Origin: a virus | Lineage: Duplodnaviria; Heunggongvirae; Uroviricota; Caudoviricetes | Length of the DNA: 64,000 bases | Strand: one strand, 5' to 3' | IMG/VR virus record: IMGVR_UViG_3300021431_000077 | Coordinates: 103,062-167,061 of that record | Shown: in pieces, positions 8,090 to 45,249 of the stretch | How positions within the stretch are numbered: the stretch's first letter is position 1 | Layout of the letters: each line of letters opens with the position of its first letter | Notes under the pieces: generated by a model | Told to the model about the DNA's origin: nothing | Databases searched by the model: none | The model's input: only the letters and a program-made list of their open reading frames with translations | Program-made: the position numbers and the translations under genes

Positions 8090-8560
8090 AGGGTTGAAAA
8101 AGAAGGGGTGAAACCTAACCCGTGTTCGTCTGCACAGGTTATCAACAGGTTGCCTACAGGGTTTCGACGGCGGGTTAACACCAGGTTCACACGGGGTTTT
8201 CACCACAGGTTTTCAACCAGATTTCACCCTCCTTTTCAACCCCATTTCAACCATTTATCAACAGTGATTTCAGGCGCCCGATATTTTCAACTTGGGTTAT
8301 GACGATTCGATTGAAACTGGGTTTGAACCCAGGTTAATAACCCAAGTTGAGAATAATGGATGTAAAAAGATGGTTACAACCCTGTTGATAGATTGTTGAG
8401 AAGTTGGGTGAAAACAGATGGTTGAAAGTATGTTGAAAACCTGTTGAAAACCCATGATAAAGATATCAACAAGATATCAACAGGTGTGAATAGATTGTTG
8501 AGAGGGTGGTATGGCAGCCAGCGTGCGGAGCTGGTCAGGGGTGATAACCCAGGTTGAAAA
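8090..8560. repeat. Left-boundary quasi-palindrome of degenerate CAAC/GTTG words with an inverted pair of site cores
   Basis: CAACTTGGGTTAT (8288-8300) and ATAACCCAAGTTG (8337-8349) are inverted around CTGGGTT-TG-AACCCAG (about 8318-8333); TTCAAC words lie to the left and GTTGA words to the right. Confidence 0.85.
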
Positions 8561-8644
8561 TCTATGTATGTAAAAGAAAGTAAACAGAAAGGGGGACGCC
8601 TTTGCAGGCGCCCCCTTGATGATATGAATGAATACGAAAGGTGT

Positions 8645-9547
8645 TTAAGCCACGAGTTCTTGGAACAGGGACTTGGAGATTTCCTTTGGGACAGATAGTC
8701 TATCAACCAAATCGAAGGAATCCTTGTCGGGCCGCAGGATAGCGAACTCACCCGATTCGTGGAAATAGAGCCAAGCATCCAAGTTCATGAAGAACAGGGT
8801 GCAGTAGATTTGGTTTTTGACCTTGTTGGGGTCATTGGAGACATTGAGTATTTCCATATCCTTTGCCACAGGCTCTTCATCATCCACTAGGATAACGTTC
8901 GGGGTGAAGAAGATTTTATGCCCTAGTACAGAACGGGTTTCGCCCATGGTTATGAACCTATTGGCGGGGCCAATGATTGTGTCATTGGCGTTACGTACAA
9001 GCAGGTTCCAGATATGGTTCATATTGGTGGACGAAACCACGTCTGTACACGGCTTGTAAAGGCCATGGGAGACAACCCATTTGGCGGTCATGAGAGATTT
9101 CTTAGTGAGGTTCTCTCGTGAGAGGATATGGGCGGTCAGGTTCAGGATGTCGAGCATATTGGCTACACCTACAGCGAGGTAATCGGACTTGGCTTCCGTG
9201 AGTTTCTCGGAGATATAGGCGGAATCCATATTAACCGACGAGGGGACAGTTATGTGGCCCTTATGGAACTCAACTGAATCCCGTTTGATTTCCTGGAAGA
9301 TGTTGATGTTGTCGTGGAAGCCAGTGGAAACTATGTTGGCAACCTTGTATGCATCAATGATGTTCGGGGTCTTTTGGGAAAGGAGTTGATGAACAATGCA
9401 ACATACTGCTTGCAAGTTTTGGGTAGCAGAGCGAAGGCCGCTGAGCGTGAGTTGCTCAGAGATGTAATCCATAGCATCGTTCCTGTCTTCGGCGAGCATT
9501 TTCTTGACAAGGGATTCGGGATTTGGTTTCGGTTTCTGTGTGAACAT
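8645..9547 (-). CDS. hypothetical protein (last cassette gene)
   Basis: 300 aa ORF, GGAGG RBS, terminator at about 8590-8615. Confidence 0.85.
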   Translation of the reverse strand: MFTQKPKPNPESLVKKMLAEDRNDAMDYISEQLTLSGLRSATQNLQAVCCIVHQLLSQKTPNIIDAYKVANIVSTGFHDNINIFQEIKRDSVEFHKGHITVPSSVNMDSAYISEKLTEAKSDYLAVGVANMLDILNLTAHILSRENLTKKSLMTAKWVVSHGLYKPCTDVVSSTNMNHIWNLLVRNANDTIIGPANRFITMGETRSVLGHKIFFTPNVILVDDEEPVAKDMEILNVSNDPNKVKNQIYCTLFFMNLDAWLYFHESGEFAILRPDKDSFDLVDRLSVPKEISKSLFQELVA

Positions 9548-9655
9548 TGGATTGCCTCCTGATGTTACAAATATACATAATTAAATATGGGAGCGGAGAA
9601 AAATCATAAATTTTTTTTGAGAAAAATCAAAAATTTAAAAAATAAAAATTAAAAA

Positions 9656-10000
9656 TTATTTCAGTTTGGAAACGAGGTTGACAGCAAACTTTTCGATATC
9701 CATGAATCGTCTGTTGATAGCTTCGGCTGTCCGCATGGTGATGGTAGCGGAGGTAGTGAACCTGATGTGACCCTTGGGCTTGGAGAGGTAGGCAACGGTT
9801 CGCAACGAGGTGTCGATGACGATGGCTTCACCGTTGGGTTCGAACGGTGAGAGTACAATGCGTCTGCTTCCGCCTATCTTACGGACGATGGATGAGGCCC
9901 TGTTGGCAACCTGGTCGAAGTAGGTGGTTGAGCCGTCCTGTTCCATGCGCTTTGCTGCGTCGTTGAGTTGTGCTGCGATGAATGCGGGTGTTTCGTTCAT
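9656..10000 (-). CDS. hypothetical protein
   Basis: GAGG RBS. Confidence 0.75.
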   Translation of the reverse strand: MNETPAFIAAQLNDAAKRMEQDGSTTYFDQVANRASSIVRKIGGSRRIVLSPFEPNGEAIVIDTSLRTVAYLSKPKGHIRFTTSATITMRTAEAINRRFMDIEKFAVNLVSKLK

Positions 10001-10231
10001 GATGATATCCTCGTTGTTTCAAACCTTGGTTTCGAGCGGCTGGTGCCAACCCGTGATATGAATATAGTTAATTAAAAGCAAGATGGGTAGGGGTTTGTTG
10101 TGTAAAGTTTTTGTTACAGAGAGGGTGAGCGAGTATAGGGTGGTATGCTGCCACCGGGAACGGAATCGTCGGGGTGATAACCCAAGTTGGAAATCTTTTT
10201 GGAAAAAGGGTAAAAGCCTGTAACAGGCTTA

Positions 10232-10777: not shown

Positions 10778-10795
10778 AATGGGCCTCCAATTGGA

Positions 10796-11131
10796 TTAGA
10801 TTTCTCGGGTGGCAGCTACTTTCCAAGCGAGGAGAGTCGGGTAGAGCTTTTTGGCCTCTTCCTTTGCTTTGGTATCGTAGAGCTTGAAGTTAGCGATGAC
10901 GAATTCGGCTTCATTGAAGTCATCCTGGGGCAACATATTGAGGGGCTTGGCCGAGCAGGTCTTGAAGGTTCCAGGGACTCGGGAAGCTTTGCAGCATTTG
11001 GCGAACCAGATGTTGTCCTTGTTGTGGCGGGATTCGTTGGTCCCTTTACAGAATGTGTTGAACTGGCTGACAGCTTGGCCGTAGGACGGTGCAAGAATGA
11101 TTCCGTTGACGACGATGATGCGCTTATCCAT
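10796..11131 (-). CDS. hypothetical protein
   Basis: GGAGG RBS. Confidence 0.75.
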   Translation of the reverse strand: MDKRIIVVNGIILAPSYGQAVSQFNTFCKGTNESRHNKDNIWFAKCCKASRVPGTFKTCSAKPLNMLPQDDFNEAEFVIANFKLYDTKAKEEAKKLYPTLLAWKVAATREI

Positions 11132-11133
11132 GA

Positions 11134-11478
11134 TTAGTCCTCCTTGAGGTTGATGTTGAGGTAGGTTGTGAACTGGGTGTTATTAACCCTGAATATGGTA
11201 GAGTGGAACGAGGAAGGAATCAGGTTATTGCATTTGAGGTCAGCAACGATGTATTCGACCATGTTGCTAATCAAATCTGTTTCGAGTGGCTGATTCTTCT
11301 TTCCCTTTCTTTTGAAAGTGATGCCGAGGGTAAGGATGGCATGGTTGACCTTGTGCTTGACCTTACCGACGGAGTAGATGTGTTCGGCGAATTTGGTTTG
11401 CAAATCGTTTCTGACGAGGAAGCAAACCTGGTCGAAATCGATAGGTTCAATCCCTGTTTTAGCCTTGTTAGTAATCAT
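11134..11478 (-). CDS. hypothetical protein
   Basis: GAGG RBS. Confidence 0.75.
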   Translation of the reverse strand: MITNKAKTGIEPIDFDQVCFLVRNDLQTKFAEHIYSVGKVKHKVNHAILTLGITFKRKGKKNQPLETDLISNMVEYIVADLKCNNLIPSSFHSTIFRVNNTQFTTYLNINLKED

Positions 11479-11497
11479 GTTAGTAGCCTCGATTGGA

Positions 11498-11749
11498 TTA
11501 GTTTAACTTGTAGACATGGGTAGCGGAGTAGGTATCGTCGCCAGTGGGTTCGCCGAACGGCATGACACGAACCTGGGTGAAGCCGTTGTTTTCCATAACG
11601 TATTTGAGGTAGAGGTGGTCATGCTTCCAGTCGCCCCAATGTACATCGACATTGACTTCGCCCTTGGGGTTGATACCATATTCGTAGTGCAGGTCATTTT
11701 CCTTGAAGACCTTAGCAACTTTCAGTTCAATTTCAATTGGGTTTGCCAT
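11498..11749 (-). CDS. hypothetical protein
   Basis: Start MANPIE with GAGGA RBS. Confidence 0.75.
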   Translation of the reverse strand: MANPIEIELKVAKVFKENDLHYEYGINPKGEVNVDVHWGDWKHDHLYLKYVMENNGFTQVRVMPFGEPTGDDTYSATHVYKLN

Positions 11750-11837
11750 TTGATTCCTCAAAAATTATTAAATTTTTTGTTTACAGAAAAAATATAGAAA
11801 ATTAAAAATAAAAGTGGCTCAGAAAAAATGTAAAAAT

Positions 11838-12212
11838 TTATTTCCAGTCCCTGATTTTGTAGTAGTTGATTGTGTTTTCGAAAGCCTCGGTGATACGGTG
11901 GTTATCTACCTTGTCGAACCCAGGCTGGCCGAGATGGTAGAGGCACAGGGCGCTGTCCCAGAGGCCATCAACGATGAGTGGGCCATAGGTCTCCCAGCAC
12001 TTGCGGTAGACAGCCAGTTCATCACCTCGTCCTGCCCAACGGCCTTCGTCGTTCAGCCATGCTTCCACCTGTGCCTTAACGTCGTCCTGCTCGAAGGTCT
12101 CAATCAGGATGCTGCCACTGCGTCTGGCAAGCTCGTCGATGAGGTCCTCGGTTGGAACCTCTCTGAGCTTGTACTGCTTGCTAGGGTCAGGGATGTAAGT
12201 ATGTCTTTTCAC
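11838..12212 (-). CDS. hypothetical protein
   Basis: GTG start, GAGG RBS, below promoter at about 12247-12275. Confidence 0.75.
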   Translation of the reverse strand: MKRHTYIPDPSKQYKLREVPTEDLIDELARRSGSILIETFEQDDVKAQVEAWLNDEGRWAGRGDELAVYRKCWETYGPLIVDGLWDSALCLYHLGQPGFDKVDNHRITEAFENTINYYKIRDWK

Positions 12213-12454
12213 TGGGTTGCCTCACTCGGTTGATTCTATGCATTTAATATACCTAATTAAAAAGTCGGTGTCAAGCGGAGTTGGCAACTTTTTGTGTAAA
12301 AAATAGTTTACAACCCTCTGATGGGGACGGCGGGCAGAAGGTCAGGGGGTGATAACCCAAGTTGGATATTTTTTGGAGAAAAAAGAAAAGGCCCCCGATG
12401 GGCTAGAAACAACGGAGTCGCCATGGCAACAAACGCCCATCGGGGGAGGAGGAA

Positions 12455-12949
12455 TTACTTATAGAGTTCGGGGAACAGTTCGAGTTGTCCGTAGTTGTTC
12501 CTCTTGTGGAGAGGGGTTTTCTTCACGGGTTTCTTCTTGGTTTTCTTCTTGGTTTTGCCAGCGAGGGTTTTCAACCTGTTGACAACTTCCTTGCGAGTAA
12601 CGCCTTTGAGGGAAGCGTTGATGGCATCGCGGTCTTCGACGGACGTTCTGCGGACTGTGACGCGAACCTTGGTGGTTTCAGTCGGTTGGTAGGTGACTGT
12701 TGAAATCTTGGGGTTCGGACGGCGGCCACGGCTGAGGTAGTATTCGGCGAACGTGGTTTTGCCGTACATGGTGTCCACTTCTACATCACGGGTCTTGATG
12801 TTGTAGCCATCTTCACGCAGGTTGAAGATGCAGGCCGAAAGGCGGGTGATGTGGAGTTTTGTGAACGCATCAAGGGAAGTGATTTTTCCGTACTTCTTGA
12901 TGTATTGCAGGACTCTGTTCTTTTGGTTGTTTCTGTGTTCGGCACTCAT
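12455..12949 (-). CDS. winged helix-turn-helix protein (HTH_39-like) with basic C-terminal tail
   Basis: QKNRVLQYIKKYGKITSLDAFTKLHITRLSACIFNLREDGYNI pattern typical of phage HTH_39. Confidence 0.8.
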   Translation of the reverse strand: MSAEHRNNQKNRVLQYIKKYGKITSLDAFTKLHITRLSACIFNLREDGYNIKTRDVEVDTMYGKTTFAEYYLSRGRRPNPKISTVTYQPTETTKVRVTVRRTSVEDRDAINASLKGVTRKEVVNRLKTLAGKTKKKTKKKPVKKTPLHKRNNYGQLELFPELYK

Positions 12950-12951
12950 GG

Positions 12952-13557
12952 TTATTTCCCCTTTTTGTCTAATTCGATTTGTTTAAGAGTTGCTTCGATG
13001 GCCTGTATTACCTTGAAGTCGCAGATAGCGAACCCGAAAGCATTTTCGTCGCGGATTTTGAATGAGCCGTCGAGATAGACTTCGATAGGGGCGACCCCTT
13101 CTTCGTCATCATTTTTGGTTCGCCAGCAGTCGATGACCCAGCACTTGTCGTAAGTGTCGAAGTAATCGTGGCGGACTTCGGAGTAGAACGGATTTCCCTC
13201 GCCTTTTGATTCCTTGTACCACTTGGACATAAGGTCAACACAATCGTTGATGAAGCGCCTTGTAGGGCAGTTTGGAGTTTCCTTGAAGTTGAGGGCTTCA
13301 AGTTTGAGCAGGGTTTCCAAATGTTTCTTGATAAACTTTTTGTCAATGCCGTGTTCAACGAGGTGTGCAACGAGGTCTTTTTTCGTGATGACCACCGTGT
13401 TGTACTTGGCTACGATAGAGGCATAGACAATATCGTCGGAGACTTTAGAGATAAAGTCCGTGATGGTCTCTTTCGAGACCTGGGGGTTTGTTTTGAGGAA
13501 AGGGTTGACTTTCGTTTTCAGAAAATCAAAAAATGTTTTTGTAACTGTGATTGCCAT
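12952..13557 (-). CDS. hypothetical protein
   Basis: 201 aa, GGAG RBS, own promoter. Confidence 0.8.
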   Translation of the reverse strand: MAITVTKTFFDFLKTKVNPFLKTNPQVSKETITDFISKVSDDIVYASIVAKYNTVVITKKDLVAHLVEHGIDKKFIKKHLETLLKLEALNFKETPNCPTRRFINDCVDLMSKWYKESKGEGNPFYSEVRHDYFDTYDKCWVIDCWRTKNDDEEGVAPIEVYLDGSFKIRDENAFGFAICDFKVIQAIEATLKQIELDKKGK

Positions 13558-14631: not shown

Positions 14632-14757
14632 ACCTCTGGGCGGAAACCGTGGGGACAGCTGCAGTCGAGACTAGGGTGATAACCCAAGTTGGAAATCCAG
14701 ATGTGAACGAGAAAAAGCCCCACCCATTCGGGTGAGGCTCGGAGACAAGGGAAACTG

Positions 14758-16436: not shown

Positions 16437-16655
16437 GAGAGGCTCCTTTGTTTCTATGATATAAATATACATAATTAAATTAGTTTCGTCAATAGGGTTT
16501 CCAACATTTTTGTGTAAAGATTTCGTTACACCCTCTGGGCGGAAACCGTCGGGGACAGCTGCAGTCGAGGATAGGGTGATAACCCAAGTTGGAAATCCAG
16601 AGGTAAACAAGAAAAAGCCCCACCCATTCGGGTGAGGCTCGGAGACAAGGGAAAC

Positions 16656-18187: not shown

Positions 18188-18417
18188 GGTTGACTCCTTT
18201 GTTTCTATGTTCTAAATATACATAATTAAAAGGGAGTTGTCAATAGGGTTTAACAACTTTTTGTGTAAACATTTCGTTACCAACTGGGCGGAAACCCGAG
18301 AAGAACTGGCAGCCCCAGAACAGGGGTGATAACCCAAGTTGGAAATCTGGTTGCAAACCCGTAGAAAGCCCCACCCTTTCGGGTGAGGCTTGATGGAATA
18401 ACATTATGAAAGAAAAC

Positions 18418-20128: not shown

Positions 20129-20327
20129 AAGTGTCTCCTATTTATACCCTAAATATACATAATTAAATTGTTTTAGTCAATAGGGTTTCCAACATTTTTG
20201 TGTAAATTTTCATATACAAACTTCTGGTGGAAACTGTGGGGACGACGGGCCCCCAGTCAAGGGGTGATAACCCAAGTTGGAAATCAAAAAATAAAAAATA
20301 AAAATGCCCCCAATGAGGGGGCGCCTG

Positions 20328-21038: not shown

Positions 21039-21243
21039 AATAACTCCGTTGTTATTACTTAAAATATAGATAATTAAAATAGATTAGTCAATAGAAAACC
21101 CAAAGTTTTTGGGTTAATTTTTGTAAACATTATTTTATCAAATCGACTCCGCCTGCGGCGAAGCTGGAAAAGGGTGATAACCCAAGTTGGAAATATAAAA
21201 TAAAAAATTTTTTAACCCCTCTTTCGAGGGGTTTGGAAGTAGG

Positions 21244-22101: not shown

Positions 22102-22289
22102 ATTTGACTCCGTTGTTAATGTTTGTTGTTTCTATGTATATAATATACTTAATTAAAATGGGTTTGTCAATAGGTTTTAATAAAATTTTTGTAAAGAATT
22201 AGATACAAACTGGGGTTTAAACCCTGTCGTCATACCCCTGTTGAGACGACGCCGCTACGGGCATGGGGTGATAACCCAAGTTGGAAATC

Positions 22290-23218: not shown

Positions 23219-23442
23219 AATTGTCTCCGTTGTTAAGGTTTCTATGTCTATAATATACCTAATTAAAATGGTTTTGTCAATAGGTTTTAACAGATATTTG
23301 TGTAAACATTTAGATACAAGTCTTCGATACCAACCAGCCTCCGCCTGCGGGCGAAGGGGAAAAGGGTGATAACCAAAGTTGAAAATCTGGTTAACCCAAA
23401 GTTAAAACCCCCTCTTGCGAGGGGGGTACATAATCATTAGAT

Positions 23443-23817: not shown

Positions 23818-24084
23818 TGGTTAAACTCCTTTCGTTGTTTCTATGTATATAATATACCTAATTAAAATGGTTTTGTCAATAGGGTTTTAACAGATTTTGT
23901 GTAAAGAATTAGATACAAACAAGGGTTTAAACCCTGGGTGGGCAGCGGCAGAAGGTCAGGGGGTGATAACCCAAGTTGAAAATCAAAAATAAAAAATAAA
24001 AAATGCCGTGAGGAAAGTGTGTTGTGGCTAGGCTGTGTGATGGCCTATTTTTCCTCACGGCAGGGGGCAGGGAGACCCCCGATT

Positions 24085-24875: not shown

Positions 24876-25103
24876 ACTGCTTTCTCCGTTGTTTTGTTGT
24901 TTCTATGTATATAATATACCTAATTAAAATTGGTTTGTCAATAGATTTAATAAAAAATTTTTGTAAACTTTTTGATACAGACTGTGCGGAAACCGTGGGG
25001 ACGGCGGGATGAAGGCGCAGGGGTGATAACCCAAGTTGGAAATCTTTTGGTGAACATAGGAAAAGCCCCACCCATTCGGGTGAGGCTTGGAGACAAGGGA
25101 AAC

Positions 25104-25562: not shown

Positions 25563-25811
25563 AGTAAACTCCTTTGTTAATGCTTGTTGTTTCTATGTAT
25601 ATAATATACCTAATTAAATTGGTTTTGTCAATGGGTTATAAACACTTTTTGTGTAAACATTTCTAAACACGGTAATCCCCAGGGAATCCTGACGCTTCTC
25701 CCGGTTCCAACAGCAGAAGGGTGATAACCCAAGTTGAATATCAGGGGGAAAACAAGAGAAAACCCCCCAAATGGGGGGCATCCCAGGTGTAACCCAGGTT
25801 TAAACCCAGGA

Positions 25812-26735
25812 TTATGCCACCTTTACGGCCTTGATGTGGTCAATGATGTGGATAACATTGTTCATCGGCTTGAAACAGGTGTTCATGAACTGCGAGTCAT
25901 CGTAGCGACCCTTACGGATGCTAGTGTGGGTGATGTAGTCTGTGTAAGCGTTGACGAGTCCCCAAGCGTTGCCCTTATGGTTTTGGTTGTCGTCCGCGTC
26001 AAGCATCTTGACGAAAGCGCTCTTCTGACTTGCAAGCACCAACTTGGCACGTTCATCCGCATTAGAGGGCATCGGGAACAACATATTGACAGCGAGTTCC
26101 AAATCGCTCTTTGCCATCTTGATGCTACTGAACTGCTTTGCCATTTCGTTGAGTTTGCCCATATACTGAGCAACGCCCTGCAAGATATACTTTGCTTCTT
26201 CCATGCGTTCATTAACCCTTGCGGAGTGGCGAATGTTGATGGTGTTTTCAACGTTCTTGAAAGCAAAATTAAATTGATTCTGACAGATAACACGGAGCGG
26301 AGTAATCGCTGCGGACAACTGATACTTTCCGTTGAAAGAATTACGGAAAATAACGTAGGGCTTGAACGTGTCGCCCAAAACATCAACTTCGGGGAGTTCT
26401 GCAATAAGGTAAATCATGCCCGTGTGGGTCATGCCACCCTTGACGAACTTCAAGCCGTCGCTGATGTAGTCCACGAATGCGAAGCCATCACGGTTCTGTA
26501 CCACCTCGTACTTCTCACCAACGACCCCGAGGATATGCTTGTGACCCTTTTCGTCGAGATAGGTGTTAGCAACCATATCATCCACTTTGGTCTTGTCAGC
26601 GAGCCAGAGCGTTTCCTTTGTTACTTCGTAATTGAGCTTTGCCTTTGTGAGAGCATCATCTACCGCTGTGGTATCAAGTGTGGTGCCGATGCTTGCCCAA
26701 GAAGCAATGCGAGGGAGGGTAATAATGTCAGCCAT
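25812..26735 (-). CDS. DUF932 family protein (phage/plasmid-like, TIGR03299 type)
   Basis: LGVVGEKYEVVQNRDGF, FRNSFNG, TPLRVICQNQF, IRHS and WGLVNAYTDY motifs. Confidence 0.9.
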   Translation of the reverse strand: MADIITLPRIASWASIGTTLDTTAVDDALTKAKLNYEVTKETLWLADKTKVDDMVANTYLDEKGHKHILGVVGEKYEVVQNRDGFAFVDYISDGLKFVKGGMTHTGMIYLIAELPEVDVLGDTFKPYVIFRNSFNGKYQLSAAITPLRVICQNQFNFAFKNVENTINIRHSARVNERMEEAKYILQGVAQYMGKLNEMAKQFSSIKMAKSDLELAVNMLFPMPSNADERAKLVLASQKSAFVKMLDADDNQNHKGNAWGLVNAYTDYITHTSIRKGRYDDSQFMNTCFKPMNNVIHIIDHIKAVKVA

Positions 26736-26934
26736 AATGGACTCCTTTGTTTGTGTGATTTGTTTCAATTACATAATTAAATATAGGTAATTGGATTTGG
26801 TTTGTCAAGGGGTAAACCGAATTTATTTTAACTTTTTTCCAACCCCAGCGTCGTCCTGCGGCGAAGGCGGAAAGGGTGATAACCCAAGTTGGAAATCTGG
26901 TGGAAACAAAGTTAAAACCCCTTTCGGGGCTTTG

Positions 26935-27644: not shown

Positions 27645-27851
27645 ATTAGACTCCTTGTTGTTTCTATATTAAATATACCTAATTAAATTCAGTTTGTCAA
27701 GCTTTTTTTAAAAAAATTTTTTTGAGTCGAGGACAAACCTGGTTTCTCCTGGTTCCAACAGCAGAAGGGTGATAACCCAAGTTGAAAACAAAAATAAAAA
27801 ATAAAAAATAACCCCCTCTTTCGAGGGGGCAGGAGTCAGCACAGAGCCAAA

Positions 27852-28349
27852 CTATTCGTGTTTTTGCACTTTGAGGATAACCCATTCTTCCTTGCTGTCT
27901 TTCGTGGCAGGGATAATTCCGATTGCTTTTTCTTTCGCTTTCGTTTCCGCTTCCTTTTCGCTTGCAGCAATGATTTCCATTTGCAGGGCGGCACCAGAGA
28001 GTTCTTGATGAGTCAATTCCACTTCAAACTTGACACTTGCATTTTCAGTTTCATACTGGTACTTTTCAAGCACGCAGTTCTCTATATGTTCACGCAATGC
28101 CCTGGTGATAGGGAACACCGAGGAACGGAAGTCTTCGCCTTTGTACAACGGGTTAGGCGGATAGCCGACAAACATACCGTTCACACCGTCCATAATGCGT
28201 AAACCGCTGATTTGAAGTTGGTTATTAAGAACCACGTTTGCAATCCCCAGCATATTTCCAATCTTCTGATTGAAAGGGAACACCTGAACCGCTGTTACGG
28301 AAAGACATTCAAAGTCCTTTTCTTCTGTTGCTTTCTTTTTTGTAGCCAT
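27852..28349 (-). CDS. spoVG: SpoVG family nucleic-acid-binding protein with C-terminal extension
   Basis: VTAVQVFP...IANVVLNNQLQISGLRIMDGVNGMFVGYP...FPITRALREHIENCVLEKY. Confidence 0.9.
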   Translation of the reverse strand: MATKKKATEEKDFECLSVTAVQVFPFNQKIGNMLGIANVVLNNQLQISGLRIMDGVNGMFVGYPPNPLYKGEDFRSSVFPITRALREHIENCVLEKYQYETENASVKFEVELTHQELSGAALQMEIIAASEKEAETKAKEKAIGIIPATKDSKEEWVILKVQKHE

Positions 28350-28749: not shown

Positions 28750-28970
28750 TGGTTTACCTCGTTTTTATACCTATAATATACCTAATTAAATTAGTTTTGT
28801 CAAGGGGTTTTAACCGATTTTGTGTAAAGAATTAGATACAAACTTGGGTTAAACCCTGTCGTCAGAACCCTGTTTGGGACGACTCCTTCCAGGAAAGGGG
28901 TGATACCCCAAGTTGAATATCGGGTTGAAACCTGTTAAAACCCCACCAGTTCAGGTGGGGCAAGTCTAAA

Positions 28971-29566: not shown

Positions 29567-29872
29567 TCACTTCACCTCGTTGAACTTGTTAAGCACCACC
29601 GCTTCGATGTAGGAACGCACGTCATCTCTCGACGGAGCAACAATGCTTCGTGTATCATCGCCATGAAAGAACGGGTCACTCGGATAAGCCACGAACATAC
29701 CATTCGGGCCGTCCATGATACGCAAGTTACGGATAACAATGGCATCGTTAATCGTAATCACTGCCATGCCCTTTGTGTACATCATCTTTGATGTTTCCTT
29801 GAAAGGGAACACCCTCACTTGTGTTACCTTGATACCGCAATTCGGTTCAATCTCTTGATACTGTTCAGCCAT
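29567..29872 (-). CDS. spoVG: SpoVG family nucleic-acid-binding protein
   Basis: KVTQVRVFP...AVITINDAIVIRNLRIMDGPNGMFVAYPS...VRSYIEAVVLNKF. Confidence 0.9.
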   Translation of the reverse strand: MAEQYQEIEPNCGIKVTQVRVFPFKETSKMMYTKGMAVITINDAIVIRNLRIMDGPNGMFVAYPSDPFFHGDDTRSIVAPSRDDVRSYIEAVVLNKFNEVK

Positions 29873-30063
29873 GTTTAACCTCTCTTGTTTGTTGTTTCTA
29901 TGCTATAAATATAGTTAATTAAATCCGATTTGTCAATAGGTAAAATAAAAAAATTTATCGACAGCATATCGCCTCTTCCTGCTGGCGAAGGCGGAAAGGG
30001 TGATAACCCAAGTTGAAAATCAAAAAGGAAAAAATAAAAATGCCCCCAATGAGGGGGCGAGGC

Positions 30064-30915
30064 TTATTCTTTGGTGAGCAAGTTCTGTTCAGGAGTAATC
30101 ATATTCTTTTCATCCAATGAACTATAATCGCTTACATCGCCAAACACAATACCATCTCTTTGTTCTTCGGTCAGGTATTCTTCGCTGTCAGCGTTCAGGC
30201 GTTCATCGTAGTCCACAAGACCTGTGGCGTGGTTCGGGAAATACCCATCGTCTATGTCAGCGTTGAGCAATCCCAAGCGGTCAAGCATATTGTAGGCTTC
30301 GTCAACATCAATTTCAGATTTGTATTTTTCTTGCCAACCGTTTTCCTTATTGTAGGTATAAATACCATAGTATTCCGTAACCTGTTCTTCTCCCCATTCG
30401 CAACGGAATTCAATGTCGGGATAAAGTTCGCAAATCTTTTTCATCAACCCATTGGCAGGAGAGTAAGCACAATCGGTAGTAAACTCAATTTCACCAGTGC
30501 TGTCCAAATTGGAGTGCAAGTCTTCTTTTGTGTCAATGACTTCGCCATACTCGTTATTGAAAGCGGTGTGGCAAAAACCCCATTTTGAACCCCATACCTG
30601 AACGCAGAACGAATACCAATCGTCATAGCCGTAGTCTTTGATGCATTGCTCCCTTTGCTTGCGTTCGGCTTCCTCGTCATAGTTCGGGTTGTCCTTCATA
30701 TCATCTTTGGTCTGCACGTATTTAGCCATATTAGACAACTTCTGAATACCCTCGGGAATAGGGATAATGCTTTCGCTATTCAAGTCCAAAATGCTATCGT
30801 GCCAATTCCTCTTGTCAAGCACAATAACGTGCTTGTCAATGAAAGTGTGGAGTTGCTTTTTCGCTTCGTCAGTCTTTGCGGTAAGCGTGATAATGTTGTT
30901 GTTCCAATTAGGCAT
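30064..30915 (-). CDS. YubB/DUF1281-like ferredoxin-fold protein
   Basis: MPNWNNN N-terminus, WYSFCVQVWGSKW and FTTDCAYSP motifs. Confidence 0.8.
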   Translation of the reverse strand: MPNWNNNIITLTAKTDEAKKQLHTFIDKHVIVLDKRNWHDSILDLNSESIIPIPEGIQKLSNMAKYVQTKDDMKDNPNYDEEAERKQREQCIKDYGYDDWYSFCVQVWGSKWGFCHTAFNNEYGEVIDTKEDLHSNLDSTGEIEFTTDCAYSPANGLMKKICELYPDIEFRCEWGEEQVTEYYGIYTYNKENGWQEKYKSEIDVDEAYNMLDRLGLLNADIDDGYFPNHATGLVDYDERLNADSEEYLTEEQRDGIVFGDVSDYSSLDEKNMITPEQNLLTKE

Positions 30916-31123
30916 AAGCCATTCTCCGTTGTTTATGTTTCTATGCTATAAATATAGATAATTAAATCTAGTTTGTCAATAGGTTTTAATAAAAAATTTC
31001 TACTGCCAATCCTGTCGTCATACCCCTGTTGGGACTGCTGGTTCACGGGGACAGGGTGATAACCCATGTTGAACCCCAATATTAAAAAAATTAAAACCCC
31101 TCTTGCGAGGGGCGGTTTTGTTC

Positions 31124-31701: not shown

Positions 31702-31924
31702 AGTTTACCTCGTTTGTTTCTTGTTTCTATGCTATAAATATACCTAATTAAATTGGGTTTGTCAATAGGGGTTATCAACTTTTTGTGTAAACTTTTGTAA
31801 ACCGATGTCCAGTCGAGGGCGGAAGCAGAGCTCCTCGACTCCAGGACATCGCAGGGTGATAACCCAAGTTGGATATTCAGCCCTGTAAAAAAGAAATGCC
31901 CCTTTCGGGGCGGTTATTAAAAAA

Positions 31925-32564: not shown

Positions 32565-32786
32565 TGTTATACCTCGTTTGTTTCTATGTATATAATATAC
32601 CTAATTAAATTCAGTTAGTCAAGGGTCTAGGCTTATTTTTTATGTAAAGTTTCGTAAACAAGGTGAATGAAACCGTAGGCTCGACGCCGCTACGGGCATG
32701 GGGTGATAACCCAAGTTGAATATCAGGGGGGAATCAGAAGAAAACCCCCTCTTTCGAGGGGGCTTGATGAGGTATTCAGGCAATCT

Positions 32787-33287: not shown

Positions 33288-33492
33288 AATTACCTCGTTG
33301 TTTGTTGTTTCTATACTAAATATAGTTAATTAAATTCAATTTGTCAATAATAAAAATAAATTTTTTTTCTCACGGCGGAGGACTCGTGCTTCTCCTGGTT
33401 CCAACAGCAGAAGGGTGATAACCCAAGTTGGATATCGGGGCGAACACGAGAGAAAACCCCCCGCCTTTCGGCAGGGGGCTTCGGACGAGGTA

Positions 33493-34023: not shown

Positions 34024-34237
34024 AGTGCTTACTCCGTTGTTGTTTGTATCTATAATATACCTAATTAAATTCAGTTTGTCAAGGGTTAGCAACAAATTTT
34101 ATGTAAAGATTTCTAAACACGGTGAATGAAACCGTAGGCTCGACGACGCTACGGGCATGGGGTGATAACCCAAGTTGAATATCGGGAGGGGGCGTAAAGA
34201 AAACCCCTCTTGCGAGGGGGCGAGGTTCAGCGTTGCT

Positions 34238-34495: not shown

Positions 34496-34706
34496 AGTTT
34501 ACCTCGTTGTTTCTATATATAATATACATAATTAAATCCATTTTGTCAATAGGGGATAGCAACTTTTTTCTGTCTGGAAGACACCGTGAATGGAATCTGG
34601 GGATTCGAGGATTCTGGTAACAGGGTGATAACCCAAGTTGAATATCGGGCTTGCCAGAAAGAAAGCCCCCTCTTGCGAGGGGACTTAGGAGTTGTATGAC
34701 ACAAAA

Positions 34707-35392: not shown

Positions 35393-35610
35393 ATTTACTT
35401 CTCCGTTGTGTTGTTTTCGTTGTATTATAAATATACCTAATTAAATTCAGTTTGTCAAGCCCTAAACAGAAAAAACTGGAAAGCTCGTGATTCTCCTGGT
35501 TCCAGCGGCAGAGGGGTGATAACCCAAGTTGAAAATATGGTGGCACACGAGAAGAAACCCCCACCCATTCGGGCAGGGGCATTCAACGAGGTAGGAGGTA
35601 AGCTTGTTCG

Positions 35611-36298: not shown

Positions 36299-36544
36299 TT
36301 TAACCTCCGCTGTTCTATATATAATATAGCTAATTAAATTCAGTTTGTCAATAGCCAACATAAAAAAATTTACTGGAAATGAGATGACCCGACGAGATGA
36401 CCCCTCGACGCTGCTCCAGTGTAGGGGTGATAACCCAAGTTGAATATCGGGGAGGGAATCGAAGAAAACCCTCGTCGTTCGACGAGGGCTGTAATGCGGA
36501 AAGTGTAGGGGTGTTTGAGTCTTGGTTAATACCGCATTACCTTT

Positions 36545-36877: not shown

Positions 36878-37130
36878 AGTGATACCTCGTTTGTTTCTAT
36901 ATAATATAGTTAATTAAAATAGGTTTGTCAAGGGGGTGTATCAATTTTTTGTTGGAAAAATCTACTGCCAACCCTGTCGTCAAGACCCCTGTTGGGACTG
37001 CTGGTCCCCAGTGGAGGGGTGATAACCCAAGTTGAAAACCCAGCAGGAACAAAAAAGAACACCGCCGTTCGGCGGTGGGAGCAGTTAGGTGAAAGTTTAG
37101 GGGTGTTAAGTTTGTTTCCTAACCGCTCTT

Positions 37131-37748: not shown

Positions 37749-37973
37749 GTTATTACCTCGTTGTTTGTATCTATAATATAGATAATTAAATCTGTTTTGT
37801 CAAGTATCTAATTAAATTATTTTCATAATCCGCACGGATTATTCCCCTGAACCCTGACGACCGACGGAAGCTCCAGTCAGGACTAGGGTGATAACCCAAG
37901 TTGAATATCGGGTGGAAACAAAGTTTAACCCCCTCTTGCGAGGGGGCTTTGTCGTCAGGAGTAAAGCGACGGA

Positions 37974-38327: not shown

Positions 38328-38567
38328 TGTGTTGCTCCGTTGTTAGGTTGTTTGTTGTTTCTATGTTCCTAATATACATAATTAAATTTAATTTGTCAAG
38401 TATTTTTTGTAACATTTTATCAACATTCTATACCCGAACCCCGAGCGTCAGCGTCAGAGCAGCCCGCGTGCGAAGGCGGAAAGGGTGATAACCCATGTTG
38501 AATATCGGGGCAGAGCGTAAAAAATGCCCCCGTAAAGGGGGCGGCACTTCATCAGGGAGGTAAAAAC

Positions 38568-38930
38568 TTAATCCCACCAATCAGGCTTAGGGTCAGACGA
38601 TTTTTCAAGCGCTTCGCTCAACTTCATTCCGACAGGGATACTAATGTCTCGTTCAACGGCAGGGCAACCGAATTGTCTCAGTTTGGAGAGTTCAGAGAGG
38701 TCAATATCGCCATACTCGCTGAAATCTGGGTTTGCGTTGTTCACCACATAGCCGTAAGCAAGGTTTTCGTTATCCTCGTAGCCTTCAAGGATATACCACG
38801 TCAATGCGTGGGTGAAAGGGCAGAACAGACGGCAGGCGACCTTTGCTTCGCCTTTCAATCCGTCTTGCGAACCGCTAGGGTGTTTCTTCAAGAACTTCTT
38901 GACTTGTGCAGTGATAAGTTTCTGTGCCAT
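38568..38930 (-). CDS. DUF2958 family protein
   Basis: LITAQVKK...LFCPFTHALTWYILEG...YGYV...EYGDIDLSEL...VERD matches the DUF2958 pattern. Confidence 0.8.
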   Translation of the reverse strand: MAQKLITAQVKKFLKKHPSGSQDGLKGEAKVACRLFCPFTHALTWYILEGYEDNENLAYGYVVNNANPDFSEYGDIDLSELSKLRQFGCPAVERDISIPVGMKLSEALEKSSDPKPDWWD

Positions 38931-39133
38931 TTTATTACCTCGTTGTTTGTTTATGTATATAATATAGTTAATTAAATTAGGCTTGTCAATAGGGTTTCAA
39001 ACATTTTTGTGTAAACATTTCGTTACAACCCGAATGAAACCGTCGGGGACAGCTGCAGTCGAGGCTGGGGTGATAACCCAAGTTGAATATCGGGGCGACG
39101 AAAAAAGAAATCCCCTCTTGCGAGGGGCGGTGG

Positions 39134-39560: not shown

Positions 39561-39761
39561 ATTATTACCTCGCTGTTTCTATATATAATATAGTTAATTA
39601 AATCTAGTTTGTCAAGCCATTTGAGAACTTTTTTGCCTGTCGTCAGACCCCTGTCGGAATCCTGGTTCGCCAGTGTAGGGGTGATAACCCAAGTTGAACG
39701 GACGACAGACGAAAAAAGAAACCCCCTCTTGCGAGGGGGCACGGAGCAGGACACAAATTTC

Positions 39762-39953: not shown

Positions 39954-39963
39954 TGCTCACCCC

Positions 39964-40146: not shown

Positions 40147-40357
40147 TTTTACCTACCTTTTTAAGTGAGTTCTATATAATATATAGTAAATTAAATCCGT
40201 TTTGTCAAGTGGTCTAATAAAAAAATTGGCAGCAGACCATTCAGAGGAGACGGCGGGCGAGCTGGGAAAGGGTGATAACCTAAGTTGAATATCGGGCGGG
40301 GCGACAAAAAGAGGGTTGCAACCGAGTTGCAACCCTCCACAACGGAAGTAAGTAAAC

Positions 40358-40735: not shown

Positions 40736-40967
40736 TGTTTTAACCTCGTCTTGATACCTTTAATATACCTAATTAAAAGCATCTTGTCAAGCCCTACCCA
40801 TCATTTTCTTTGTAAACTTTCGCTTACATATCCCGCCGACCCACCCAGCGGCAGCCCCCAGCCTCCGCCGGGCAGCCAGCAGGTAAGGGTGATAACCCAG
40901 GTTGAACATCCGCGTGTTGCCAACAGAAAGGGTCGCAACCGCTGGTCGCAACCCTGGTGAGAGCAGG

Positions 40968-41108: not shown

Positions 41109-41366
41109 TTGAAACCTCCGTTGTTGTTCTATATATAATATACACAATTAAAACTACAATGTCAATAGGTTATTAACAATTCTGTGTAAACATTCGGTTA
41201 CAAACCGCCGCCCCAACATCGTTTCCAATCCTGACGATGACCCGACTCCTGATGACCGTCGAATCTCCAGTCAGGACTAGGGTGATAACCCAAGTTGAAT
41301 ATCGGGGTGGGGTCAGGAAAAAACCCATAGGGTTATACCCTATGGGCTAGCAACCGATGACCTAGA

Positions 41367-41685: not shown

Positions 41686-41867
41686 ATTATACCTCGTTGT
41701 TTGTATCTATAATATAGTTAATTAAATCTCGTTTGTCAAGGGGGACAGCGAATTTTTTATCGAAAGCCGCACGCTTCCCTCTGGGACTAGGGTGATAACC
41801 CAAGTTGAATATCGGAGGGAAAACAAAAGATTGGCGGTCTCTTTCGAAACCGCCTTGATAAAGTCCG

Positions 41868-42257: not shown

Positions 42258-42467
42258 AAGTTACTCCTTTGTTTCACTTAAAATATACATAATTAAATCC
42301 GTTTTGTCAAGGATTTAATCAACTTTATTTATACCTTTTACTATGGGGTGGTATCACGCCCGCAGCTCCAGTCAGGACTAGGGTGATAACCTAAGTTGAA
42401 AAACATAAAAGAAAAAATAAAAAAGGTTTAACCCTACGGGTTAAACCCTTGTTTTTATCGGAGTTAA

Positions 42468-42890
42468 TTAAAGCTTAACCTTGAAGTGGACAAGGGACTT
42501 GTAAACAACATCTACAAGCTCGTCCTGCAAAGCCTTCGCAGCAAGCCCACGTTGCTTCTCGGTGTTGCGGTTCACCTCGGCTATGGTGGCGTTGAACCCC
42601 CCGAACATCAGACAGCGATAGCCCGTAGGCACAAGCTCCACGGGAGTGACGTTGAGGTAGTAGCTGGACGGGTAACTGTGACCGTCATAGAAACTGCGAC
42701 CCGCCTTGCGGTAGCCCACGCTCAGACGGAGGGCGTTGCAATCGTCCGACCCACTGCCCGTCTCAACCTTCTGCATAGGGAACGGGATGCTAATATCCCT
42801 GCCAAACTTGACTTCAATGCCTGCACAAAGCTCCTGCACCTTCTTATACATTTCGCTTTCAGTATCTACTTCTATACCTTTGAGAATCAT
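42468..42890 (-). CDS. hypothetical protein
   Basis: Single-gene cassette with atypical upstream element. Confidence 0.8.
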   Translation of the reverse strand: MILKGIEVDTESEMYKKVQELCAGIEVKFGRDISIPFPMQKVETGSGSDDCNALRLSVGYRKAGRSFYDGHSYPSSYYLNVTPVELVPTGYRCLMFGGFNATIAEVNRNTEKQRGLAAKALQDELVDVVYKSLVHFKVKL

Positions 42891-43061
42891 TTTACAACTC
42901 CGTTGTTTTCCCTAAGGCAACATCGCCTCGGGACACCCCTTAATATAGGGTGGTATCTCGCCCCCTGTTCAAACTGTTTCAGGGTGATAACCCAGGTTGA
43001 ACATCGGCGGGAACCAATTTAAAAGGGGACCTTTACAGGTCCCCTTCGTTCAAATCGTTTG

Positions 43062-43247
43062 CTAGACCCTTTCAATCTTGTCTTCGTCAGCATGGACGCG
43101 AACCCCGCCCCAACTTCCTTCAAGTTGCCCCAAATCGTCTATGCTTTCTATCACGCCCACCCGCCCGTTATAATGCGGTTCGCCCGCCATTTCAACAATA
43201 CGGATTTTATCACCGACTTTAAAACCTTTTGTATCGTGTTTCTGCAT
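43062..43247 (-). CDS. DUF4314 family protein
   Basis: VGDKIRIVEM..EP....GVIESIDDLGQLEGSW pattern. Confidence 0.75.
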   Translation of the reverse strand: MQKHDTKGFKVGDKIRIVEMAGEPHYNGRVGVIESIDDLGQLEGSWGGVRVHADEDKIERV

Positions 43248-43254
43248 CTTGTTT

Positions 43255-43335
43255 TTACCCGTTTTTCTTATAGATGTTAAGACCCATTTTCTTAGCGGTA
43301 ATTTTCCAAATCTGTTTTGGTTGTTTCTGTGCCAT
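43255..43335 (-). CDS. 26-aa basic micro-peptide, KMGLxIY family copy 2
   Basis: MAQKQPKQIWKITAKKMGLNIYKKNG. Confidence 0.8.
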   Translation of the reverse strand: MAQKQPKQIWKITAKKMGLNIYKKNG

Positions 43336-43552
43336 AATTTTATGCCCTTTTTAGAGTTGAGTTTTTCAGTTTAAAGTGTTCCCTAAGAAACACTACATAT
43401 AATATAGATAATTAAACACGAAAGTGTATATATTGTTTAGCATTTTCTTGTAAACTTTCGTTTACAAAAGGAAGAAAACATCGTTCTGATTCCGACAGCT
43501 TCAGCACAGTTTAGGGTGATAACCCAAGTTAAAAATCGTGGCGGGCAAAAAA

Positions 43553-43762
43553 GAAAAAGGGAGCCTTTCGGCTCCCCCTTTCTCGGAGTTGTTTTTTCTT
43601 TCTTTATTTCCTGCGGGAATAAATCTTCAATCCCATCTTGATTGCAGAAATCTTATCGGAAGTTGTAGGTTTACGAGCCATTGTTTTAATCCTCTTTTGT
43701 TTTATTGTTTGTTTTGTTTGTTAAAAGAAAAGGAAAAAGGGGAGCCTTTCGGCTCCCGATTT
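43553..43762 (-). terminator. Two near-identical terminators (gggagcctttcggctccc) flanking a micro-ORF
   Basis: Hairpins at about 43559-43577 and 43741-43758, each with an A-tract on the + strand. Confidence 0.8.
43604..43681 (-). CDS. 25-aa basic micro-peptide, KMGLxIY family copy 3
   Basis: MARKPTTSDKISAIKMGLKIYSRRK; AGAGGA RBS; between duplicated terminators. Confidence 0.8.
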   Translation of the reverse strand: MARKPTTSDKISAIKMGLKIYSRRK

Positions 43763-43763
43763 C

Positions 43764-45050
43764 CTAGAATTCAGGTTCTTCATCAATCTTGGACTTTGTG
43801 GAAGTTTTCTTTTCCATTCCGTCCAATTTTGTTGCAACCCAACGGAATTCTGCTTTGGATTCCAATTTCTCACGAATGAGAGAAGTTTTCAGAACCATAA
43901 AGAGTTCTTTTTTGGAACCCATAATCGGACTTCCGTCTGCGTGTTTCGTTCCCGTAGGATATTGTTTATCCATGTATTGTTCCAAAGAAGAAAGTTCAGC
44001 GGAAGAAATAACATTTTCATTGCAACGAGAGCGGAATCCCAAAGTTGTAGAAATTGCGTTCACTCCGATGAGAGCCTCCGAGAAATTTTTCGGAATTGCG
44101 GTTCCGTTCAAATATTCCTCACCGCTCGGAATGTCAAAGTTTTCCACCAAAGAGATGAACATCTTTGCAAGTCCGTCCGAGTCAAAGAAGTGAATTTCCA
44201 CAATTTTCTTGGCGAGCCTGTCAAAATGCTTGTTATCATAGCATCCGAACGAGAGAGCCAACATCAAATTTTCGTAGGTTCTACCGCAAGAATGATGACC
44301 GAGGGCTTCGTCGGAAAGTTTCAAATCTTTCAAATGCTTTTTAGAGAACATTTTCCAAAACATTGAAATATTCGGATTTTCATTGACCGCACGCAACACG
44401 CTTGCATCTTCGTAAATCAATTCCAACGGAAAATATCTTCCGCAAGAGCCGAGCATTGCAGGGGAAATTTCAGAAGTTTGCCCCATGAATCCCTCTCTAT
44501 CGCACCCGTTGAAAGCAATAAAGAAATTCACGTCATTATGAAGATGGAAAACTTTGACAATTTTTGTCAAAGCCACCGTCAAAAATGTTCCTTGAACCCT
44601 AGGATTTGCGGCAGAAAATTCATCCAAAAGAACGACCGCCGCATGAGCCTCGGGAAGACCTGTTTTTTCGTCCGTCCAAATGCGGTAGCCCTTAGTATCG
44701 TCGGTGGTCGGCACCTTTGCGTTCGTTGCAGGGTCTACACGATAGAACGGGAGCCAGTTCGGAATCTCGTCCTCACCCGCAAGGTCAAACGAGCCGTCCT
44801 TATTCTTATGCCCCTTGTAAGAGAAGCCGACAATTTCACTCCCGTTCACCCATTGGTTGATAGCAACCGTGATGAACGGCAACTTCCAATCCGTTGCGAG
44901 AGAGCGAACCACCGAGGTTTTACCCATGCCCGGTGCACCCTCCAAGCCGTAAGAGATGATAGTGTGCAAGATGGTCTTATCGTCCACCACCTTGCGGTTC
45001 ACGTTTGCGAGTTCCTTGAACTCCGTTGCAGTAACCTTGATTGATTCCAT
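43764..45050 (-). CDS. AAA+ ATPase (MoxR/dynein-related)
   Basis: Walker A GAPGMGKT, Walker B VVLLDEF, AFN sensor region. Confidence 0.85.
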   Translation of the reverse strand: MESIKVTATEFKELANVNRKVVDDKTILHTIISYGLEGAPGMGKTSVVRSLATDWKLPFITVAINQWVNGSEIVGFSYKGHKNKDGSFDLAGEDEIPNWLPFYRVDPATNAKVPTTDDTKGYRIWTDEKTGLPEAHAAVVLLDEFSAANPRVQGTFLTVALTKIVKVFHLHNDVNFFIAFNGCDREGFMGQTSEISPAMLGSCGRYFPLELIYEDASVLRAVNENPNISMFWKMFSKKHLKDLKLSDEALGHHSCGRTYENLMLALSFGCYDNKHFDRLAKKIVEIHFFDSDGLAKMFISLVENFDIPSGEEYLNGTAIPKNFSEALIGVNAISTTLGFRSRCNENVISSAELSSLEQYMDKQYPTGTKHADGSPIMGSKKELFMVLKTSLIREKLESKAEFRWVATKLDGMEKKTSTKSKIDEEPEF

Positions 45051-45249
45051 GTTAGTAACTCCGATTTAACCCTAAGGCTTCATTGCCTTGGGACACCCGT
45101 TAATATAGGGTGGTATCGAGGCATCGGGCCGTAGGGTGATAACCCAGGTTGAACGTGACGGGGTATATTTAGGGGGTGGCGCGTATAGGGTATTAGCCTA
45201 GGCTAATTTGATATTTGATAAGCGCGGTACTTTTTATTTTTTAAAAGAA

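Follow-up and report, generated by a model that had tools for sequence, protein, structure and literature searches.

An invariant 18-bp site phased to terminators in a unidirectional gene array of large gut and rumen phages

The DNA analysed here (the window, 64,000 nt in full) corresponds to bases 103062-167061 of a 174,804-bp virus record (Caudoviricetes; IMG/VR IMGVR_UViG_3300021431_000077) with a CheckV completeness of 42%. It contains an array of about 38 transcription units on the minus strand, the junctions of which carry co-oriented copies of one 18-bp element, here called the site, reading CAACTTGGGTTATCACCC in the direction of transcription. With a confidence just short of an even chance, we read this 18-mer as a duplex DNA site that would be recognised by a protein, likely one encoded by the phage clade itself, and that would form the fixed centre of a terminator-site-promoter punctuation module. 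An earlier examination of the DNA without database searches (the sequence-only reading) had proposed a candidate cassette-shuffling array, in which the site was either a recombination point or the binding site of a phage protein; judged from phasing and conservation, the second of these alternatives appears to fit best.

The site and its place between terminator and promoter

On the plus strand, the region 8539-45151 contains 38 copies of GGGTGATAACCCAAGTTG with at most one mismatch, 27 of them exact, against a chance expectation of 0.02 matches in the shuffled window. Two more degenerate copies, one with two mismatches and an inverted one with three, lie just beyond the last full copy (Table 1). 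When the whole 174,804-bp record was scanned, all 39 forward copies fell inside the array and none was found on the opposite strand. Every copy is intergenic, the sole overlap being with a dubious 66-aa open reading frame that starts with TTG and runs across a junction. The exact 18-mer is confined in IMG/VR to a few related contigs. Two of these are circular and complete, with lengths of 419 and 422 kb and end overlaps of 107 and 110 bp; they carry 40 and 46 copies in a single orientation, in each case inside one region of 38-40 kb and nowhere else. Some relatives have tandem 'empty' sites, which in every case directly follow unit 2; they are spaced 93-115 bp apart, and the DNA between them holds neither gene nor terminator nor promoter.

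Read along transcription, a junction opens with a stop codon; next come a GC hairpin, in many cases with a GNRA loop, and its T tract, then the site, a spacer and a promoter. The first ~30 nt of the spacer are about 65% GC and are followed by an AT-rich stretch, TTGACA-N17-TATATT, a strong Shine-Dalgarno sequence and one to five genes. The distance from the hairpin to the site is nearly constant: measured after trimming A-T pairs from the stems, it is most often 25 nt and lies between 24 and 27 nt in 60% of 195 junctions; those shorter values that were checked by eye, such as that at copy 12, arise because extended A-T stems surround a core hairpin at ~25 nt. The linker keeps this length while its sequence varies.

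Two classes of promoter were distinguished downstream of the site. Class A has the form TTGACA..TTTAATTA..TATATT and scored 11/12 in 20 junctions of the 26-45.5 kb part of the window. Among 207 junctions of the window's clade, 162 have this promoter (TTGACA-N16-18-TATAWT) downstream of a GC hairpin with a T tract, 16 have class B, four have both and 25 neither, and the site is kept perfectly in all four groups. From the site to the -35 element of class A promoters the distance ranges from 37 to 116 nt, and no helical phasing was detected (R = 0.23 at 10.5 bp, n = 34, p ~0.17). Twenty further class A promoters, 16 outside the array and four inside multi-gene units, have neither a terminator nor a site, and the site therefore goes with terminators, not with class A promoters. 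The palindrome TGTAA-N-TTACA, present in 74 of the 207 junctions, is also found at promoters outside the array and so belongs to the promoter.

Class B is represented by the element ACCACCCTATATTAAGGG, which has no -35 and occurs in units 1 and 3 of the window at 19 and 27 nt past the site. In the window's clade it starts 27-29 nt (or 18-19 nt) past the site in 20 junctions, and it is restricted to the array, as checked also in a complete relative. The class B element is followed by a conserved 5' hairpin, GTCCCRAGGC...GCCWWGGG, which is present as well in units 1, 7, 9 and 11 of the array of the relative G002.

Much of the junction anatomy given by the sequence-only reading is thus upheld: co-oriented intergenic copies restricted to 8.3-45.2 kb (38 copies, to which the degenerate copy 39 is added; in the two complete relatives, too, the motif is absent outside one ~40-kb region), the order of the elements, a DNA element placed in the gap between terminator and promoter of mostly ORFan early genes, and a promoter and terminator of its own for nearly every unit, unlike an integron. 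The spacer of 25-60 bp was too narrow, the TTGACA promoter holds for most junctions but is replaced by ACCACCCTATATTAAGGG in units 1 and 3, and the one to three genes per unit rise to five in distal units, which have internal promoters without sites.

Conservation of the site is sharply bounded. Over 156 junctions the information content is 1.7-2.0 bits at 16 of the 18 positions and close to nil at the adjoining bases; pairs of junctions, orthologous or not, are ~100% identical at 16 of the 18 positions and 25-60% identical in the flanks, identity falling to 35-60% one base beyond the 18-mer. On this comparison, the near-complete identity inside and the steep drop one base outside indicate that the 18-mer is under purifying selection, in a manner that fits recognition by a protein. 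The AAA+ ATPase encoded by the first array gene, used as a query, retrieved ~30 relatives at 49-59% identity, and the four contigs fetched from among them all carry the same 18-mer, with variation at positions 5 and 7 only. These two positions hold most of the variation overall, the variants differing by lineage (mostly A5 and/or A7 in G002, mostly T5/G7 in G000). Along the G002 array the variants are ordered in the direction of transcription, A5 forms (ATG/ATA) occupying the first half and T5 forms (TTA/TTG) lying toward the distal end.

A profile search over 1.8 billion proteins identified, by way of a homologue of the AAA protein (35-38% identical), a sister clade whose contig has the same kind of array. 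Its site is [GC]AAC[CT]C[AG]GTCCATCACCC, with 18 co-oriented copies at the equivalent junction position; the outer parts, AAC ... ATCACCC, are common to both clades and the centre differs. The hairpin-site distance is 22-24 nt in 10 of 14 junctions (mode 23 nt). Class B is the dominant promoter type of this clade, starting 28-32 nt after the site in 11 of 18 junctions, and the TTGACA type is found in two of the 18. The DnaA box, the IHF core, dif, parS, ECF -35/-10 spacing and T7-type promoters were compared with the site by eye, and none fits.

The tight phasing of the site both to the upstream hairpin and to the class B promoter argues for a role in transcription. A protein bound to the site could act as a polar roadblock: the active site of a halted polymerase would lie ~14 bp before the site and ~11 nt past the hairpin, which would place it at the end of the U tract, about 10-12 nt beyond the hairpin. 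The terminators would thereby be tight, and the next promoter would be shielded from read-through and from polymerases sliding on after termination. DNA-bound roadblocks halt polymerase in elongation as well as polymerase that slides along the DNA once termination has occurred (PMC11364550). At class B junctions, the bound protein would sit near -58 of the predicted start, a location typical of class I activators or UP elements, from which it may recruit polymerase; in the sister clade the centre of the site is likewise predicted to lie near -58, taking the -10-like TATATA as reference. As a by-product, 18-24 bp of perfect identity at each junction, together with the conserved promoter and terminator, would permit swap, loss and gain of genes by recombination of the RecA/UvsX type.

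Several observations weigh against a site that serves terminators through a bound protein. Terminators outside the array lack it, for example the plus-strand hairpin at 7849-7876, and a few sites have no upstream terminator, namely copy 1 and the tandem 'empty' sites in G002, L057 and L061. The sister-clade junction is rigid throughout, so that links to the terminator and to the promoter are inseparable there. The polymerase-footprint argument is textbook geometry, and the candidate binders (the two SpoVG-like, the winged-helix and the unit-3 proteins) were picked by location alone.

It appears unlikely that the site is a signal read in the course of transcription, that is, a promoter used by some phage polymerase or sigma factor that has escaped recognition, or a nut-, ops- or Q-like loading site for late read-through of the 38 terminators. 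The orientation of the site along transcription, its fixed distance to class B in the sister clade and the resemblance of its right half, ATCACCC, to the CCACCC box of class B promoters would suit such a signal, as would two sigma-like genes in relatives and the position of the terminator-less copy 1 directly after the SSB operon, where an incoming polymerase meets it first. However, family searches gave no match to T7-like polymerase (PF00940, without a positive control) or to beta' (PF04997). No -10-like element follows the site, which lies in a gap expected to be untranscribed, and the motif occurs nowhere else in the complete genomes, unlike a middle or late promoter; nor does a loader need a spacing of 25 nt from the preceding hairpin. 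Structure in RNA or single-stranded DNA is not indicated either: the spacer after the site has no conserved hairpin (mean z = -0.37 against shuffles), and the only symmetry in the site, a 4-bp mini-palindrome GGGT/ACCC, shows no compensatory change, since variants with G7 changed to A keep C18 (by eye).

Gene-content variation and recombination

The gene content of the array varies strongly between relatives, as the sequence-only reading had supposed. Three full arrays together comprise 124 gene families, of which 35 are common to all three, 24 occur in two and 65 in one only. Backbone genes keep a collinear order in all relatives, apart from some translocations and duplications. Patches with an identity of 90% or more, inside arrays that are otherwise ~75% identical, indicate recent exchange. 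Genes are swapped inside units and occupy different units in different phages; in one worked example a gene has been replaced between its start codon and the next ribosome-binding site, leaving site and promoter intact.

The positions of past exchanges were counted as the ends of BLAST homology blocks among five arrays, which share ancestry, so that inherited events are counted more than once. Among 191 such ends, 27 lie at the edges of the site (~14%), ~40 in the promoter region, ~24 in the terminator or gene end and 65 elsewhere, in the interior of units; ~91 therefore fall in terminator, site or promoter. Ends exactly at a site edge number nine at +17 and six at -6. Recently exchanged patches follow the same terminator/site/promoter pattern, three of their ~24 ends lying at +17 to +20.

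These data bear on the cassette-shuffling system advanced by the sequence-only reading, in which a dedicated recombinase would cut and join at the 18-mer and thereby excise, insert and rearrange site-bounded cassettes in the manner of integrons or pdif modules. An asymmetric, invariant site of single orientation at every unit boundary, with variation focused on positions 5 and 7, would suit such an enzyme, and so would the block ends exactly at the site edge, the recent-patch ends at +17 to +20, the gene-less tandem sites of some relatives and the many families unique to one array. However, no enzyme was found to go with it. Searches of four records (G000-G003, which include the two complete ~420-kb relatives) gave no tyrosine recombinase (PF00589; the positive control matched in 14/14 genomes) and no Y1 HUH transposase (PF01797), and no serine recombinase (PF00239) is present in either complete genome, the single one in G003 being non-conserved and ~80 kb from the array. 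Most breakpoints are away from the site. Inside units, the start codon or ribosome-binding site is where genes have been replaced, genes also move between units, and the backbone order is collinear. Three other assemblies of the strain are 100% identical to the window over 1.7-8.9 kb of the array, and exact-protein look-up with a mid-array gene returned only contigs identical to the window and no structural variants. Site-specific recombination would also leave unexplained the 25-nt phasing to the hairpin and the 28-31-nt phasing to class B, and we consider it highly improbable.

For general recombination, a RecA/UvsX-like gene is present in relatives. In its purest form an explanation by general recombination needs no reader protein: the shared 18-24-mer would serve as a homology adaptor and gene conversion would homogenise the copies. 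The junctions fit the published description of the promoter/stem-loop (PeSL) motifs of T4-type phages (PMC2839356, PMC4122927), some of the recent exchange patches end at the site, and the variants of the site have become alike within lineages and within parts of the array. However, homology for general recombination does not need 16 invariant positions across phages with proteins 49-59% identical, nor a sharp 18-bp island while adjacent bases drift freely. The orientation relative to transcription, the fixed hairpin distance and the ordered change of the centre in the sister clade are left unexplained, and selection for evolvability is weak. As a full account of the site, homology without a reader is judged rather improbable, and exchange of this kind would rather be a by-product of a protein-read site.

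Array genes, the iteron region and the carrier phages

The array units probably hold host-takeover and anti-defence genes. Comparison of 58 array proteins with Pfam matched nine families, or seven without three overlapping AAA models; the families include DUF932, DUF2958, DUF1281_C and SpoVG, which are typical of early or leading regions, as are pentapeptide proteins found in the sister clade. Among ten core-unit proteins, Pfam matched DUF2958 alone. The genes flanking the array encode SSB and a protein with a GatB/YqeY domain and otherwise gave weak matches. The most conserved array protein, the unit-1 AAA+ ATPase, has weak MoxR/CbbQ-type matches among solved structures and nothing suggestive of DNA binding. 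The unit-2 protein is far better conserved toward the sister clade (65-67%) than the AAA protein, and unit 2 (43000-43514) has a leader of ~130 nt before its 61-aa gene. The model of the unit-3 protein (predicted local distance difference test, pLDDT, 91) consists of a helix, five strands and two C-terminal helices, for which no convincing PDB match was found (best Foldseek E = 0.03, best VIA Z = 4.3). In all arrays the unit size grows from ~0.5 kb to more than 2 kb toward the iteron end.

The sister-clade array on contig L083 has two features of its own. Three tandem pentapeptide-repeat paralogues of 297-300 aa, one per unit, lie at 11093-13753 and are possible DNA mimics. Between the AAA gene and the next unit (3946-4390), tandem repeats of 77/99 bp, in which CTATTGCAAGGGTCTGTAT is frequent, make up ~450 bp.

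The array ends in an iteron-rich dyad region (Table 1). One dyad arm carries TTTCAAC-type repeats and the other GTTGAAA-type repeats, with several copies of CTGTTGATAACC, and a perfect 16-bp palindrome at 8316-8331 separates the two degenerate site copies, which face one another. A promoter-like TTTAATTATGTATATATT at ~8066-8085 points into the region. The iteron region is conserved directly after the last site in G000, G001, G002 and G005, and may represent an origin or terminus or resemble a centromere. This raises the alternative of polar sites linked to replication, which would be bound by an iteron-type protein and act as Ter/KOPS-like signals to forks or translocases in a heavily transcribed region. 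All sites point toward the origin/terminus-like dyad, degenerate sites, one of them inverted, lie within its conserved region, and GGTTATCA and TTCAAC occur both in the site and in this region. These common words are short, however, the sites occupy only one side of the dyad, and no initiator gene was identified beside the iteron region. Placement of one site per terminator with 25-nt phasing is a property of transcription units, and a replication role is considered very unlikely.

The carriers of the array are a clade of ~420-kb gut and rumen phages, whose genomes encode, outside the array, Ro/TROVE, NAD ligase, RtcB, Cas3-like helicase and similar proteins. Against 50,697 phage records, megablast with 12 kb and with 18 kb of the window found nothing; the AAA protein retrieved nothing in a single-protein locus search and just the three known relatives in an alignment-based one. 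Rfam at gathering thresholds gave no match over the whole window, and full-text literature search for the 18-mer and its 11-nt cores returned only unrelated primer-like strings. In 185,579 bacterial species genomes, the site is multi-copy only on phage contigs binned into metagenome-assembled genomes (MAGs), namely sheep-reticulum 'Bacteroidaceae' (101 + 317 kb) and human-gut 'Alistipes', and single matches are fewer than expected by chance; the site is therefore a property of the phage clade and not a host regulon. Whole megaphage genomes of the clade sit in MAGs with these labels (L062-L077; JAFXNA010000009.1, JAFXNA010000004.1, CAAGBL010000026.1). TTGACA/TATATT promoters and strong Shine-Dalgarno sites are atypical for Bacteroidota genes, and for this reason the binning may not indicate the host.

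Table 1. Coordinates of the array, its sites and associated features (window positions unless a contig is named)
Feature	Position	Strand	Remark	Basis
Whole array	8332..45151	-	39 site copies delimiting ~38 transcription units	motif scan
Site copy 1	45134..45151	-	no terminator upstream; SSB operon precedes	motif scan
Site copy 2	43514..43531	-		motif scan
Site copy 3	42982..42999	-		motif scan
Site copy 4	42381..42398	-		motif scan
Site copy 5	41790..41807	-		motif scan
Site copy 6	41280..41297	-		motif scan
Site copy 7	40887..40904	-		motif scan
Site copy 8	40270..40287	-		motif scan
Site copy 9	39679..39696	-		motif scan
Site copy 10	39068..39085	-		motif scan
Site copy 11	38483..38500	-		motif scan
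Site copy 12	37886..37903	-		motif scan
Site copy 13	37017..37034	-		motif scan
Site copy 14	36425..36442	-		motif scan
Site copy 15	35514..35531	-		motif scan
Site copy 16	34623..34640	-		motif scan
Site copy 17	34160..34177	-		motif scan
Site copy 18	33413..33430	-		motif scan
Site copy 19	32701..32718	-	example junction	motif scan
Site copy 20	31854..31871	-		motif scan
Site copy 21	31054..31071	-		motif scan
Site copy 22	29998..30015	-		motif scan
Site copy 23	28898..28915	-		motif scan
Site copy 24	27767..27784	-		motif scan
Site copy 25	26874..26891	-		motif scan
Site copy 26	25719..25736	-		motif scan
Site copy 27	25021..25038	-		motif scan
Site copy 28	23961..23978	-		motif scan
Site copy 29	23364..23381	-		motif scan
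Site copy 30	22266..22283	-		motif scan
Site copy 31	21172..21189	-		motif scan
Site copy 32	20262..20279	-		motif scan
Site copy 33	18324..18341	-		motif scan
Site copy 34	16574..16591	-		motif scan
Site copy 35	14674..14691	-		motif scan
Site copy 36	12347..12364	-		motif scan
Site copy 37	10172..10189	-		motif scan
Site copy 38	8539..8556	-	last full copy, ahead of iteron region	motif scan
Site copy 39	8332..8349	-	degenerate (2 mismatches), within iteron region	motif scan
Inverted degenerate copy	8288..8305	+	3 mismatches; usual GATATT 5' flank retained	motif scan
Iteron-rich dyad region	8090..8500	.	array end; convergent with plus-strand genes	
Example intrinsic terminator hairpin	32742..32765	-	3' end 23-25 nt ahead of site copy 19	
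Example class A promoter TTGACT-N17-TATATT	32594..32622	-	unit after site copy 19	
Class B promoter-like core CCACCCTATATTAA, unit 1	45100..45113	-	no -35; array only	
Class B promoter-like core, unit 3	42940..42953	-	27 nt past site copy 3	
Unit 1 gene, MoxR/CbbQ-like AAA+ ATPase	43764..45050	-	most conserved array gene	
Unit 2 gene, 61-aa protein	43062..43247	-	65-67% identical in sister clade	
Unit 3 gene, 140-aa protein	42468..42890	-	conserved in both clades	
DUF2958 gene	38568..38930	-		
DUF1281_C (Api92-like) gene	30064..30915	-		
SpoVG-like gene	29567..29872	-	candidate nucleic-acid binder; family also in sister array	
Second SpoVG-like gene	27852..28349	-		
DUF932 gene	25812..26735	-		
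Winged-helix (HTH_39) gene	12455..12949	-	kept in arrays of G001 and G002	
Tandem 'empty' sites	G002 array units 2-6 (L040/L041); L057 12028-12133; L061 2470-2697			

Comparison with known systems and implications

Among known systems, the array architecture is a variant of the PeSL type, with the invariant, terminator-phased 18-mer as a new element. PeSLs combine a terminator and a promoter in one motif, which serves as a substrate for general recombination (Arbiol et al. 2010, PMC2839356; Comeau et al. 2014, PMC4122927). As in their case, a stem-loop terminator and a strong early promoter of the sigma-70 type are repeated between small ORFans in a hyperplastic region, the ends of indels and replacements between relatives often fall in the motifs (~91/191 here), and general phage recombination genes are present without a dedicated recombinase. 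Unlike PeSLs, which occur in scattered regions, the junctions described here form a single unidirectional array of ~37-40 kb, contain the extra invariant 18-bp element ~25 nt past the hairpins, and include a second, array-only promoter class. The carrier is moreover a ~420-kb gut/rumen megaphage, not an evident T4-type myovirus, in which only scattered genes have been identified.

Integrons likewise have tandem, same-orientation arrays of small, mostly unknown genes with a repeated site at the unit boundaries. However, integron cassettes are promoterless and depend on a common Pc, whereas the units described here have their own promoter and terminator; attC is a variable imperfect palindrome that folds as single-stranded DNA, whereas the site is an invariant 18-bp duplex. 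An IntI-type tyrosine recombinase is lacking in the four records searched, most breakpoints are off the site, and genes are not tied to one site. The pdif modules of Acinetobacter plasmids, acted on by XerC/D, are also bounded by a short conserved site, but pdif is a 28-bp sequence of 11-6-11 structure, alternates in orientation and uses host Xer, whereas the 18-bp site is asymmetric, of one orientation, unlike dif and phased to terminators.

The Sal box and T0 site of rDNA, bound by TTF-I, and the sites of Reb1 are eukaryotic roadblock terminator and boundary sites. They too are asymmetric protein sites of ~18 bp that act in an orientation-dependent manner at a fixed short distance after a T-rich release element, and they lie between the end of a unit and the next promoter, which the bound protein can aid. 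The co-orientation of all copies and the fixed hairpin-site distance in both clades agree with this roadblock-type geometry. The eukaryotic sites differ in having known proteins and acting on eukaryotic polymerases, whereas the binder and its effect here are suggested by geometry and conservation. We know of no bacterial or phage equivalent. The fullest version of our reading, namely a phage-encoded, protein-assisted terminator and insulator that would be a counterpart of Reb1/TTF-I, would double as an upstream element of class B promoters and would provide a clade-wide junction for exchanging early anti-host genes, is possible but doubtful as a whole.

The array resembles the host-takeover modules of other large virulent phages, such as the terminal-redundancy module of SPO1, the pre-early region of T5 and the terminal-repeat genes of Twort-like phages. 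In these modules numerous small early genes share one orientation, and all or almost all of them have a terminator and a strong promoter of the host type. To our knowledge, no invariant 18-mer separates the units of these modules.

A repeated boundary site is by itself no evidence for a dedicated shuffling system, and the array carries the PeSL model of modular gene exchange over to megaphages of an unrelated group. Bacterial and phage transcription is thought to depend on intrinsic and Rho-dependent terminators for its ends. If a protein bound at the site makes terminators tighter or insulates promoters, the site would represent a type of transcription boundary element new to bacteria and phages and, if so, a compact, ready-made insulator part for synthetic biology. 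For the phages themselves, it offers a handle on how very large genomes organise and regulate ~40 independent early units.

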